From NCBI GenBank assembly GCA_951406725.2, contig OX597839.1:2294001-2358000 (forward strand): 64,000 nt of DNA, written 5' to 3'. Positions 1,974-61,754 of the stretch are shown here, in pieces. The notes under the pieces were generated by a model. It saw only the letters and a program-made list of their open reading frames with translations, did not search any database and was not told the origin of the DNA. Source of the DNA: Octopus vulgaris. Lineage: Eukaryota. The translations under genes and the position numbers were made by a program. Each line of letters starts with the position of its first letter. The stretch's first letter is position 1.

Positions 1974-2187
1974 TAATCAAAGAACAGGGAAAAGACACCA
2001 ACAAAAAAACATCAACGCGAGAACGTGGTACATGTAAACTATTAATAAGACGCTCAGAGAATGCAAAGAAAGATTGGTTGTTCTACATTTCGAGCAAAGC
2101 TCTTCTTCGGAAACAGGAGACTTAGGAAAGTCCAAAAGAAAAGGAAGAAGGAAGAGAAAAATCACCAACAGTTCACGTGTAGTTGCA
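1974..2187 (-). mobile_element. PLE-like ~200-bp terminal element with minimal hammerhead motif (HHR at 2080-2114)
   Basis: gttt-CCGAAGA-A-gagc-ttt-gctc-GAAA-tg-TA-gaac; homologous to 18302-18510; its 3' end is duplicated at 2384-2456; flanked by microsatellites. Confidence 0.65.
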
Positions 2188-2561
2188 TATATAGATAGAT
2201 AGATAGATAGATAGATAGATAGATAGATAGATAGATAGATAGATAGATAGATAGATAGATAGATAGATAGATATGCGTATTTTCCCTTGTTAACAGTTAA
2301 CACGGATAAATTGTGTGTGTGTGTGTGTGTGTGTGTGTGTGTGTGTGTGTGTGTGTGTGTGTGTGTGTGTGTGAGTGTGTTTGTAATTAATGGGGGAAAA
2401 GGACACAAACGAAAAACATCAACGCGAGAACGTGGTACATGTAAAGTATTAATAATTCCTTCGGAATAATATCAGTGATATCGTCGAAACGTGTCAAAAG
2501 TAAAAGTATTTGAATTACACCTGCGTTAAACACCATTCATTTATTTATACATATATATATA

Positions 2562-2918
2562 TAAAATTATAAATGAGGGTATCTACGAGATACCACTATG
2601 CTGAAAATAGCAGCCATGATCTGGCTTTAAAACCACCTAAGTTGTCCATATCCCAACACGGAGAAAAAACAAAGAGACAAGATAAAACTAGTATAAAATT
2701 ACTAGTTCCATCTTGTCTCTTTGCGAGTTTTTTCCGTGTTGATATATGGACAATTTAGGTGGTTTTAAAGCCAGATCATGGCTGCTATTTTCAGCATGGT
2801 GGTATCTCGTAGATACCTTAATTTATAATTTTAATAACCATTACCTTTGAAGGTTATTTTTTCCATGCTGACTACTTGATAAAATCGTTATTTTATTTTA
2901 AAATTAACGATCTTATCC
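2562..2918 (-). mobile_element. (TA)n-embedded foldback element (probable inverted PLE pLTR)
   Basis: Inverted arms 2562-2693 / 2700-2833; terminal hairpin 2878-2917 adjacent to aagtagtcagcatggaaaa (minus strand). Confidence 0.65.
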
Positions 2919-3134
2919 ATATATATATATATATGTGTGTGTGTGTGTGTGTGTATGTATATTTCGTTTTTGGATTTGGTTTGCGAGATTCTTTATGTGA
3001 GTTCATGTGTTGAAGCATATACTGTTGTGTTTGGGGAGCGTCATTCTCTTTTAGTGCCTTATAACTTACACTCACCGGTGAAATTTCCTCTCATTTCCTT
3101 CTTTATTTTTTTTTTTTATTTTCGTTGAGTCTTG

Positions 3135-3323
3135 CAAGGACAGACAAAGGGTTTAAATCAATTACATCGACCCCAGTGCGTAAATGGTACTTATTTAATC
3201 GACCCCGAAAGGATGAAAGGCAAAGTCGACCTCGGCGGAATTTGAACTCAGAACGTAGCGGCAGACGAAATACGGCTACGCATTTCGCCCGGCGTGCTAA
3301 CGTTTCTGCCAGCTCGCCGCCTT
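3135..3323 (-). mobile_element. tRNA-derived SINE family A
   Basis: ggcggcgagctggcagaaacgttagc..gagttcaaattcc..ggggtcgat; many near-identical copies in the window. Confidence 0.85.
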
Positions 3324-5097
3324 AAATTCCGTGCAATACCGATTATGTAAACAACTTAGGAGCCAACCCGGCGCAAGATGAAATCCCAACTGTATTGCGT
3401 GGAACGCAAAAGTTATAAATACAATATAGCACAATATAACACGATATCAACCACACAAGATGGACACTAACACAGCCTCGTTTTCAACTTTCATTATTGA
3501 CACACACAGAAACATAGATACATATCTACATAAATATCGTAAAACAAAATGGCGTTTATTCTTAACCAATCAATACGCAATCAGAAATTTCACTCTTTAT
3601 TTTTTTATCTTGTTTATGCGCCATGTCTATTTTTGTGCTGGTAGTTTTGATTCAGACCAGAAATATGCTCTAGCGTTGCTTTATTATATATGTCTTTATT
3701 TATTTATTTAATTTTTATTGTTCGATATATTTATTGTTTTTCGATTAGTTCTTTGTAAGGAATCGCCTATGGCTATTTTCCACCAGAAAACATCTCCACC
3801 TACAACTCAATTTATATTTTGGAACACACTTTCGGCGGTAGAGATGTATGTGCGCGCGTGTGTAAGTATGCATGCAAGTGTATATGTGTAAGTATACGTG
3901 TTTTTGTGTCTACACATACACACAACACACACACATACGTACACACATATATTGTATATATATATATTGACACACATATACATAAGTGTATATTATATAA
4001 ATATGTATATATATATATATATATAATATATATATATATACACACATATACATATGTGTATATATATATATGTATATAAATATGTATATATGTATATATA
4101 TATATATCTATATGTATTTATATATGAGATATATATATATATATCTCATATATAAATACATATAGATTATATATATTACATATATACACATATATATATA
4201 GTAAATATATATGGATGTATGCATACATACACACACAAGCTCACAAACACATATGTTTAGGCATATATGTGTAAATGTGTGTGTACATGACAGTCTCTAA
4301 TTACGTGTTTGTGTGTGTGTGTGTGTGTGTGTATATGTGTGTGCGTGTGTGTGTGTAAACACATATTAGGTCTGGATGTACTGGTGACGAGATGGCTGAG
4401 ACTTTTGGGATTGGAATTTCTATCTACTTTTTCTTAGACATCGAAGACAACCACAAGTCAATGCCTTGGGGGAAGAATCGACTTTGATGGGATGGTGGGC
4501 CAGGGTGGGAGGTAAGCTTTGGTCGGAATGTTTACAGCAAAGGCAAATCTGCTAAAGGCATCCAAAGACCAGATGGACGTGGTGTAGGCGGTGATAGTGA
4601 TGGTGGTAGCTGTGGTGGTTGTGGTGGTAGTGGTAGCGGTGGTTGTTGCAGCTGTGGTGGTAGCGGCGGCGGTGGTAGGGTCGGCAATGCAAGTAGTAGG
4701 TTAGGTGGTGGTGTCGGTGGTGGTGGTAAGTACTTCAAATACAGATTTTGTTGCTGCTGCTGCTGCTGCTACTACTACTACTACTACTACTACTACTACT
4801 ACTACTACTACTACTGCTACTGTACTACTGCAAGTGTTACTATTGTTACTAGTATAGCTATTACTATAAGTGCTGCTGCTGCTGATGATGATGATGATGA
4901 TACCACTGCTACTGCTATAGCTGTTACTACCATTACTACTACTACTACTACTACTACTACTACTACTACTACTAATAATACTAATACTAATACTGCTGCT
5001 ACTACTGCTGCTGCTGCTACTTATTGCAGGAGTGGAGGGCAAGTCCCATGGCCTTTTACAACAGACGCTGTTCCCACACTGCTTATATCGATGATGT

Positions 5098-5198
5098 GGA
5101 GGTGCGTGGCTTTGTGGTTCGGGTGTTGAGCTCATGATCGTAAGATTGCGGTTTCGATTCCTGGACCGAGCGACGATTGTGTTCTTGACCAAAACTCT
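5098..5198 (+). mobile_element. SINE family D head, 3'-truncated
   Basis: ggaggtgcgtggc..tggtt..ggtttcgattcctggacc matches the head of 1591-1839. Confidence 0.75.
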
Positions 5199-5262
5199 TG
5201 TATATACATATATATATATATATATATATATATATATATATATATATATATATATATATATA

Positions 5263-5427
5263 TACGACGGGCTTCTTTCAATTTCCGTCTATCAAATGCA
5301 CTCACAAAACGCTTTGTTCGGTTCGAGGCTATAGCAGAAGACACTTACCCAAGGTGCAGTGCAATGGGACTAAACTCAAGACCATATGGCTTGAAAGCAA
5401 GCCTCTCAACAACGCAGCCACTCCTGC
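5263..5427 (-). mobile_element. SINE family B 5' half
   Basis: acgacgggcttctttca..gaagacactt.cccaaggtgc..cagccactcctgcg. Confidence 0.8.
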
Positions 5428-59600: not shown

Positions 59601-59655
59601 TATATATACACACACACACACATATATATATATATATATATATATATATATATAT

Positions 59656-59842
59656 AATAACAAAGGGTAAAATTAATTAATTAAGAAGTAATTAATAATT
59701 TCACCAAGTAGAATTCGGTATGAAAAAGGACCATTTCTAGAGAGTCCCTTTTTAAAGTAGAAGAAATAGCTAAGATTTTTGGCTACTATTTCTAAACTTC
59801 GGTGTGTGGTGAAGCAAATCTTCGCTGAACCCTTTTATTAAG
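59656..59842 (+). mobile_element. Homolog of the 9751 foldback element retaining head + inverted arm only
   Basis: aataacaaagggt.aaattaattaattaagaagtaat..taatttcaccaagtagaattc and tttaaagtagaa..ctatttctaaacttc..gctgaaccc. Confidence 0.75.
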
Positions 59843-59890
59843 TATATATATATATATATATATATATATATATATATATATATATATATA

Positions 59891-60148
59891 AGTTTAACAA
59901 TTAAGGATAACCTCTTAATAAGGGATCTTAACAAGAAATTATCGGGTAGTTAGCGTGAAAACCTCATAAAAGAAAAGAATTCGAAAATAATTTTTTTCTT
60001 TTGAACAAATTAATTATATCTATATTGTATAGAGGGCATTATTACATATAAATGCCTCACACTAAGAGGGACAAAGTCATTACTTTGTAATGACTTTGTC
60101 CTCTTAGTGTGAGGCATTTATATGTAATAATGCCCTCTATACAATATA
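59891..60148 (+). mobile_element. (TA)n-embedded foldback element
   Basis: Near-perfect ~62-bp hairpin 60021-60083 / 60087-60148, 3-nt loop; terminal hairpin 59906-59943 + gggtagttagcgtgaaaa. Confidence 0.7.
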
Positions 60149-60166
60149 TATATATATACATACATA

Positions 60167-60318
60167 TACGACGGGGTTTCAGTTTCCATCTAAAAATCCA
60201 CTCACAAGCTTTTGGTCAGCCCGAGGCTATAGTAGAAGACATTTGCCCAAAGTGTCGCAAAGTGGAACTGAACCCATAACCATGTGGTTAGGAAGCAAGC
60301 TTCTTACCACACTGCTAC
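60167..60318 (-). mobile_element. SINE B 5' half
   Basis: tccactcacaag..cccgaggctatagtagaagaca. Confidence 0.75.
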
Positions 60319-61546
60319 TTTTGCCTCTAGTAGACTCGGTTTTACTTAATCTGTCGTCGGCAAATGCATGAGCTATCACCTATCTGTGAAATCAACATTA
60401 TCACTTTTTAAAGCCTCTAAACTAATTAACAAAGAAACATACCAATTAATTATTTAAATTCAAGTGTTAATTAACGCAGATGGAAACGTAGATTAAAGCT
60501 AAACTTAATCAATGAATTAATGAGCAGGTAATTCATTTATTTAATTAAAAAATATCATTAGACCGTGAAGCACGTATGTATGTATGTATGTATGTATCTA
60601 TCTATTTATCTATCTTTATATATATATATATATATATATATATATATAGACATTTACACACATAAATACATGCGTATACACACAAATACACACACACACA
60701 AATTAACACACACAAATACATACATACACACATTCATAGATAGATAGATACATACAGACAGACAGACATACAAACATACATACAGATATACATACATACA
60801 TACATATATACACGCACATAATTTCATTCTATATTTTTAAATTAATGACGTGAATATGCATGCGATTAAATTTGTGTGTATATATTTAAGTATGTACATG
60901 TAAATTTCACTCAAATTATATATATTATTTATATATGGGTATATATATATATATATTTATTTATATTTATATATGGGTATATATATGTGTGTGTGTATGT
61001 GTGTGTGTGTGTGTGTTTGCATCTGTGTGCGTGCGCGTGTGTATGTGCGTGTTTGTGTGTATCTCTGAGTGTGTGTGCCTGTGTGTGTGTGTGTGTGTGA
61101 GAGTGAGTCTGTCTGTCTGTCTGTGTGCAATGACATGCAATACAAGAATGGAATAAAACATTTCTGCACATTTAGAAAAGAAAAGAAAAAAACCTTTAGT
61201 AATTTCCGCCATGATACTCTATCGCTGTGATACCGAATAAAGCCTGCCATTAGCTTTATGTAACACAAACGAGAAGAGATAATTAATTGATCGTTAACTG
61301 TCATCAAAGTATCAAGTGACTCACAAACTGTGTCCAATTGTTTGCTGTCGCCACTTAAAGCGTCGAAACTGCGAATCCTGAGCGATATAGCTGACGAGAA
61401 GTAAATTTTCGTTTGATCTGTCTTTTGCGTGCTTTAATCGTTTATATTCATTCCTAACAATCATGATTGCCTATACACACACCCATCTTTTATCGTATAT
61501 TGTGCTTTGTTCATATATACATACATAGATACACATATACACACAT

Positions 61547-61754
61547 GATTCGCCATGATAGATCGTTAGCCACTACACACATTTTTTTTCTCTCCTTGTT
61601 TCTCTCCTTGTTTTTTTTCTGTGTCCCTTTCTGTAGAAGAGCGTAGGCTCGAAACGTAAAAGACTTTTTCTATTCTTGAGCGTTATACTAATACCTCTGT
61701 TTGTTTTGTACACCACCTGTCTTCGTCTTTTGTTTACTTTCGTAAACTCTCCCT
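61547..61754 (+). mobile_element. PLE-like terminal element with hammerhead motif (61627-61662)
   Basis: cttt-CTGTAGA-A-gagc-gtag-gctc-GAAA-cg-TA-aaag; ends in (TA)n. Confidence 0.7.

Follow-up and report, generated by a model that had tools for sequence, protein, structure and literature searches.

A 64,000-nt stretch of the Octopus vulgaris genome (contig OX597839.1, positions 2,294,001 to 2,358,000 of the forward strand, assembly GCA_951406725.2; hereafter the window) contains six microsatellite-embedded elements of about 200 nt, each carrying a variant of the minimal hammerhead ribozyme, and raises the question of what these elements are, how they came to be so short, and whether a hammerhead with an altered core can still be at work in them. 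The six motifs that an initial, sequence-only reading had located in the window all lie at the claimed positions, on the claimed strands, and read as described. They fall into two related families with units of ~160-215 nt: family A, with stem I CUUU/AAAG and loop GUAG (motifs beginning at 12950, 37501, 58220 and 61627), and family B, with stem I GUUU/AAAC and a three-base loop (2080 and 18372). Comparison with the 2.8-Gb genome (227 contigs) makes it near certain, on sequence grounds, that the six elements are the ends, formed by pseudo-long terminal repeats (pLTRs), of two families of Neptune-type Penelope-like elements (PLEs). The best explanation as a whole, and in our judgement the probable one, is that these pLTR ends arise from an internal start and run-off, and that they carry a hammerhead that would be slowed but is still selected.

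The parent elements were reached through an endonuclease fragment lying within the window, which as a query gave 15,407 candidates, of which 150 were scored and 30 loci, including the window itself, were obtained. A family A motif lies 294-994 nt downstream of the endonuclease in 20 of these 30 loci, in every case in the sense orientation and with U6; among loci picked for long open reading frames (ORFs), 15 of 16 possess one. In two loci from a position-ordered sample a GIY-YIG end is separated from the element by 750-900 nt of C-rich sequence, and (TA)n follows the element. The hammerhead-ORF-hammerhead arrangement with direct pLTRs is retained at two loci, both of family A: in L135 the motif occurs twice, 4,285 nt apart, within 676-nt direct repeats (94%), and in L132 twice, 4,384 nt apart, within 633-nt direct repeats (88%). 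In the upstream repeat of each, the 3' end of the element runs on into ~550 nt of 5' untranslated region (UTR), followed by the ATG. Locus L121 encodes a single ORF of 972 codons with an RVT_1 match above cut-off and a visible GIY-YIG motif, proteins of this type number 571 at E of 1e-30 or below among 8,000 scored, and U6 hammerheads are present in elements with long stop-free ORFs. Of eight family B loci retrieved upstream of long copies, three (L290, L288 and L292) include a related ORF; in L290 it has 637 stop-free reverse transcriptase (RT)-endonuclease codons, shares 69% identity with L121, and is followed 2.9 kb downstream by a C4 motif. The motifs, first assigned to a non-coding family, thus terminate, on the 3' side, Neptune-type elements that encode protein. 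Of the two origins originally offered, solo pLTRs or retrozyme-like units, the first is supported by this placement. At L079 (G000:C1:1876810-1879831) a short copy in inverted orientation lies across (TA)n from an endonuclease, 3' UTR and hammerhead, and the first of the two copies lacks ~30 nt directly after stem I. Another, distant PLE family (27-30% identity to L121) adjoins family B copies at L150, L278 and L290:3-821.

Placement in the Neptune clade is suggested by architecture and by neighbouring sequences. As in that clade (Craig et al. 2021, PMC8557442), an RT is followed by a cysteine linker and, at the C terminus, by a GIY-YIG endonuclease, and insertion is biased towards microsatellites; the CX4CXXC linker preceding the endonuclease in L121 and L290 resembles the Neptune1_Nv row. 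Indirect support comes from the related loci L305 and L307 (53-57% identity), which carry the motif core and stem II of the Acropora digitifera Neptune (PMC4209133). Against this assignment count its derivation from architecture and neighbours and not from a tree with named references, and the weakness of the GIY-YIG Pfam matches (E 0.007-0.01, below the curated cut-off). Unlike known Neptune elements, those of octopus have a long pyrimidine-/CA-rich 3' UTR (0.3-1 kb in family A, 1.7-2.9 kb in family B), non-canonical hammerhead cores and a very large excess of 200-nt ends.

The motif possesses the features of PLE minimal type I hammerheads, namely stems I and II, the G10.1-C11.1 pair, nucleotide 9a and a palindromic 15.1-16.1, so that its initial identification as such a hammerhead with a palindromic ACGU holds structurally, cleavage being a prediction. 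The extra A following A9 is likewise genuine; the viroid precedent invoked for it is unneeded, since nucleotide 9a figures among the hallmarks given for hammerheads of PLEs (PMC4209133). The pattern GAAGAGCN{2,6}GCTCGAAACGT has 37,379 exact matches in the genome and its reversed control none, and the motif is therefore not a product of chance. The elements are abundant, as had been proposed, but the density of about one per 10 kb is a property of the window; genome-wide it is ~1 per 75 kb by exact pattern, a lower bound. Patterns anchored downstream only recover 19,924 family A and 14,796 family B copies. Among the exact matches 18,990 carry A6U (CUGUNGA), 9,327 carry U4C (CCGANGA), 5,124 have the canonical CUGANGA, with both families represented, and 3,938 have other cores. 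The canonical core CUGANGA...GAAA...UH is lacking in the 28,317 U4C and A6U matches (76%), as it is in the window copies. The warning that a CUGANGA search would miss both families is correct for about three quarters of the copies; the families themselves remain detectable, because canonical members exist in each. An Rfam scan of the window gave 393 matches, the best 150 of which were microsatellite-driven microRNA with no hammerhead family among them. A subfamily combining U4C and A6U was considered and rejected, as the combination occurs at 2-4 per 100, the level of other private changes.

Both core changes are inherited. Among the first 100 flank-anchored family A copies, read by eye, U6 was present in 97 and A6 in none, and U6 is found in both pLTRs of L135 and of L132. 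The U6 subfamilies have divergences from 0.039 to 0.114, indicating several waves of amplification after A6U. In family B, C4 and the state of a flank site go together (69:6 vs 1:27, p 6e-18), and median divergence is 0.075 for U4 copies and 0.042 for C4 copies; because C4 travels with flank differences, the U4 copies constitute a separate older subfamily and not CpG decay. Outgroups were drawn from 80 related loci in metagenome assemblies by a relaxed motif scan that gave nothing in shuffles, and their 29 motifs comprise 26 with U4/A6, two with C4, one with G6 and none with U6. These comparisons have shown A6U and U4C to be subfamily-fixed and derived relative to the outgroups, in keeping with their first description as family-level variants. 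That they represent the decay of single copies, for example by CpG loss or gain, is hardly credible: C4-G5 does form a CpG site and private changes do occur in single copies, but thousands of copies share each change, C4 is linked to its flank, and both pLTRs of two elements carry U6. Older lineages that differ in loop II likewise include C4 cores (G000:C1:4892515-4892592; L083, L120 and L213), so U4C may have arisen more than once. Outgroup motifs at L332:- near 916, L349:+ near 1334, L338 and L314 include one canonical type I hammerhead whose stem III is complete, one core with G6, and cores with U3-A8.

The ends of the short copies bear on their origin. The 3' end is fixed ~100 nt past the cut site, where at least three TA units are present in 31 of 46 family A and 66 of 76 family B copies (the latter set including a few copies of other old lineages), in agreement with the (TA)n targeting originally proposed. 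The 5' ends are ragged below a ceiling ~90 nt upstream. In family A, 37 of 46 lie within 94 nt upstream of G8, none at 95-169, and nine copies reach 170 to over 500 nt upstream; in family B, 56 of 76 lie within 92 nt, and the nine that seem to end at 129-162 are artefacts of (TA)n. The ceiling coincides with YCA/TAG/CAT motifs, the sequences there reading TCAG(A/T), CTAGT and GCATT in family A and TCATT, TCAGT and TCAAA in family B. These appear initiator-like, the initiator consensus being TCAKTY, although the match is short. Six copies have a G where the parent has another base ahead of the A, the trace expected from copying of a cap, a weak sign judged by eye. No 5' end at the cut site was seen among 100 + 100 downstream-anchored copies of families A and B inspected by eye, and 8-10 per 100 such copies end at scattered places within or after the motif. 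Cut templates would give starts at the cut. At L010 and L054, copies of A and B stand head to tail in one (TA)n tract, indicating repeated use of the same target.

These ends would be explained if transcription started at the initiator-like motif within the upstream pLTR, if the GIY-YIG nuclease nicked (TA)n and primed synthesis there, and if the reverse transcriptase started inside uncut RNA, ~100 nt downstream of the hammerhead, and ran off the RNA 5' end ~90 nt upstream of it. Such run-off would account for the ceiling on the 5' ends of the copies, and we consider this origin moderately favoured. The hammerhead would cut slowly and conditionally, either as an ACGU dimer (for example between two pLTR copies 4.3 kb apart) or together with the element's protein, so that most RNA stays intact for copying. 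The Poseidon element PAc of Anolis offers a precedent, with an internal RT start, copying of uncut RNA and cleavage only in the presence of its own protein (Frangieh et al. 2024, PMC11167929), but the start sites of PAc lie in the ORF and leave a tail, whereas the fixed end in octopus lies ~550 nt upstream of the ATG. For Drosophila Penelope, a promoter that includes an initiator is reported inside the pLTR (PMC2377424); should that report and PMC4209133 use the same numbering, it lies about 125 nt ahead of the hammerhead.

The short copies could instead be ordinary early 5' truncations from the 3' pLTR of full-length RNA, the ceiling marking a pause or a microhomology hot spot. Truncation at the 5' end is the rule for PLEs, the ragged ends and the nine longer family A copies would be expected, and an ATG/ATGTG near the ceiling resembles the TA flank. 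We nevertheless think this rather unlikely, since the density of family A ends climbs to the ceiling and is then followed by none for 75 nt, and since the ceiling stands at the same distance in two families whose sequences differ there while both have initiator-like motifs. Much less likely still is that the 200-nt units are a self-propagating non-autonomous family, retrozyme-like or similar to short interspersed elements, using the Neptune enzyme. The excess of short over long copies (106 of 122 end within 150 nt upstream), the start site that short copies would contain, and small head-to-tail groups at L010, L018 and L021 are what such a family would show. Animal non-LTR retrozymes are, moreover, hammerhead units of 150-400 nt related to pLTRs (PMC7229834; bioRxiv 10.64898/2026.07.22.740005), and the latter already ties retrozyme units to pLTRs. 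Retrozymes, however, are described as tandem arrays of canonical hammerheads (PMC7229834), whereas the octopus units are almost all monomers with coding parents: in the one spacing range counted, 181-241 nt, there are 298 head-to-tail pairs against the 37,379 motifs. Short and endonuclease-linked copies are also mixed within the same subfamilies, and each 5' motif variant of the short copies has a long counterpart. The retrozyme-like option of the sequence-only reading is thus unsupported.

Returning to the preferred account of internal start and run-off, it remains to be asked whether the altered hammerhead still matters to the element. Subfamily-level variation of the family A motif is confined to N7 and H17: none of the other 34 motif positions vary, against 46 of 158 flank columns (Fisher 4e-5; 43 copies chosen by endonuclease, two larger sets giving similar outcomes). 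At H17 the base is A, U or C, and G is absent as a family-level variant, as the cleavage chemistry requires. Family A contigs from sequencing runs filed under four other organism labels show variants at N7 and H17 and none above 10% at U6. In one of these runs the hammerhead is covered at a depth of 250,000-500,000 and most flank bins at less than 150, almost only the hammerhead aligning, although this depth gives no copy number and counts only reads at 80% likeness. Because only the free positions N7 and H17 vary after A6U, the hammerhead motif looks to be still under selection despite that change. Covariation is found in the larger alignment: with seven outgroup motifs added, 95% of cells are paired and 7/8 pairs change on both sides, and no shuffle reaches the covariation score of this alignment, a score that kinship inflates. 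Within the genome the claims first made were too broad. Stem I does covary, in one compensatory pair between the families (CUUU/AAAG vs GUUU/AAAC), but the 'agac' and 'gaac' forms are wobble variants; GAGC/GCUC is indeed kept while the loop changes, but being invariant stem II contributes no covariation.

Several points weigh against continued selection for cleavage. The flank comparison is inflated by low-complexity alignment, and its columns are non-independent; the flanks contain conserved blocks of their own, so that the constraint could be on a promoter or a protein-binding site. Family A has a fixed loop II as well, a part that is normally free to vary. An inactive core helix is predicted for the two youngest U6 subfamilies (G5:C probability 0.86 and 0.98, vs 0.12 in five A6 copies). 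Mutagenesis of another hammerhead is reported to give low activity for all single CUGA-turn changes (PMC9901934), a natural A6C hammerhead cuts at under 0.1 per min (PMC3088659), and a dead ribozyme would just as well explain why no copy begins at the cut site. These points allow a serious, if secondary, possibility, in which the parents are the same but the A6U (perhaps also the U4C) hammerhead is dead and is kept as an RT-bound fold or site or as part of an internal promoter. Hammerhead cleavage is dispensable for insertion in vitro (PMC11167929), which agrees with that possibility. On the other side, N7 and H17 are precisely the two sites of recurrent change, with G absent at H17 at the family level, and a DNA promoter has no reason to follow this pattern. 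Natural U4C (viroid) and A6C (phage Bcep176) hammerheads are described as slow but active (PMC3088659). The inherited core change would likely slow the predicted cleavage, and on balance we expect these putative ribozymes to retain residual cleavage, with somewhat better than even confidence.

Other proposals for how the core might be moderated fared variously. That A6U and U4C strengthen the same inactive helix is rejected, as this applies to family A only; in family B the G5:C probability is 0.01 with C4 and 0.00 with U4. A downstream box complementary to stem II could pair with it in an alternative helix, whose predicted probability in the six window copies is 0.02, 0.92, 0.43, 0.21, 0.97 and 0.0, but as an inhibitory switch the box shows no covariation, stem II being invariant, and has no clear equivalent in the outgroups. 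In cofolding, the ACGU dimer was the top structure for none of the six copies, and three showed short intermolecular CG pairing. A bolder synthesis, which we put forward tentatively, is that an active natural A6U hammerhead, in spite of a core change regarded as crippling, has been selected through several waves of amplification that yielded 19,000 copies and would, together with U4C in the sister family and the shared box able to sequester G12, form a tuned-down switch gated by protein or dimer, the 200-nt copies being run-off cDNAs that would map the start site and reveal uncut RNA as the sole template.

To our knowledge the hammerhead is nearly universal in canonical PLE clades. Minimal hammerheads in PLEs, their extra nucleotide and their palindrome are already published, with a consensus CUGANGAH and U3-A8 as a reported core variant (PMC4209133), and no octopus entry occurs in the searched supplement of that report. 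Relative to those published hammerheads (Cervera and de la Pena 2014), U6 and C4 dominate here. U4C, one of the two cores first considered unusual, is already known naturally from a viroid (PMC3088659), and A6U is the less expected change; neither a natural A6U nor such amplified families were found in the literature searched, although the survey of Lünse et al. 2017 may contain them. The core variants described by Perreault et al. 2011 (PMC3088659) are rare isolates, whereas each variant here defines amplified lineages. For Octopus vulgaris, a repeat annotation from 2026 gives 31 PLE families as recently active, and the word ribozyme does not appear in it (PMC13282606). The canonical, U4C and A6U hammerheads constitute matched natural versions in one background, each amplified thousands of times, and a single assay can therefore probe how small an amount of catalysis suffices for an element to succeed. 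In this genome, searches that insist on CUGANGA give counts of these motifs ~fourfold too low. A large class of short repeats in the octopus genome represents PLE ends, and their length may reflect where transcription begins.

Table 1. Features of the window (coordinates are positions within the 64,000-nt stretch).
Feature	Position	Strand	Remarks
Family A short copy (pLTR end), subfamily CUGUAGA	61547..61753	+	Initiator-like motif at start, (TA)n at end
Minimal type I hammerhead, A6U	61627..61662	+	U6 = 61634; extra A = 61638
Predicted cut of the 61627..61662 hammerhead	between 61658 and 61659	+	Numbering after PMC4209133
Downstream GAGCG box	61678..61682	+	In both families; complementary to stem II 3' strand plus G12
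Family A short copy, older subfamily (N7 = C)	58162..58343	+	
Hammerhead of the preceding copy	58220-58255	+	U6 plus apparently private U4A change
Family A short copy, subfamily CUGUUGA	37401..37613	-	Hammerhead 37501-37536
Family A copy, older canonical (A6) lineage	12896..13073	+	14-16-nt deletion: stem I 5' strand and C3-A6 gone
Family B short copy	18303..18509	+	Hammerhead 18372-18406, U4C (CCGAUGA), between (TA)n tracts
Family B copy, older lineage (loop UUU)	1975..2184	-	Hammerhead 2080-2114, C4; 3' end meets (CA)n tract
2080 element, second copy of its 3' 60 nt	2394-2455	-	92% identical; upstream, beyond microsatellites
Broken family A parent coding fragment (RT thumb, Cys linker, GIY-YIG)	14644..15398	+	77% identity to L135; no hammerhead downstream
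Inverted duplicate of part of the 14644..15398 endonuclease fragment	15419..15580	-	Structure typical of PLE insertions
Minisatellite	27554-28878		Units of 114-138 nt, based on TG/TA tracts
Diverged 38-nt tandem repeat array	31831-33171		Sequence richer than surrounding microsatellites
Broken mariner-type transposase	34351-35391	+	DDE_3 and Transposase_1 above cut-off
Tc1-type transposase N-terminal fragment	46869-47441	-	HTH_Tnp_Tc3_2
Frame that we take to resemble the C-terminal part of an RTE/CR1-type long interspersed element	49078-49644	-	No Pfam match

Two of the window copies (Table 1) require a corrected reading. The copy at 12950, described initially as degenerate, is damaged in its motif, but it is not a worn A6U copy, since it aligns to the canonical CUGAUGA lineage of L065, L145 and L148. 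The C-A-G core of the 58220 copy had been included among the family variants; the family reads CUG, CAG occurs in 1/220 copies of one set, and the change looks like a private one. The copy at 37401..37613 is 92-93% identical to both pLTRs of the full-length locus L135.

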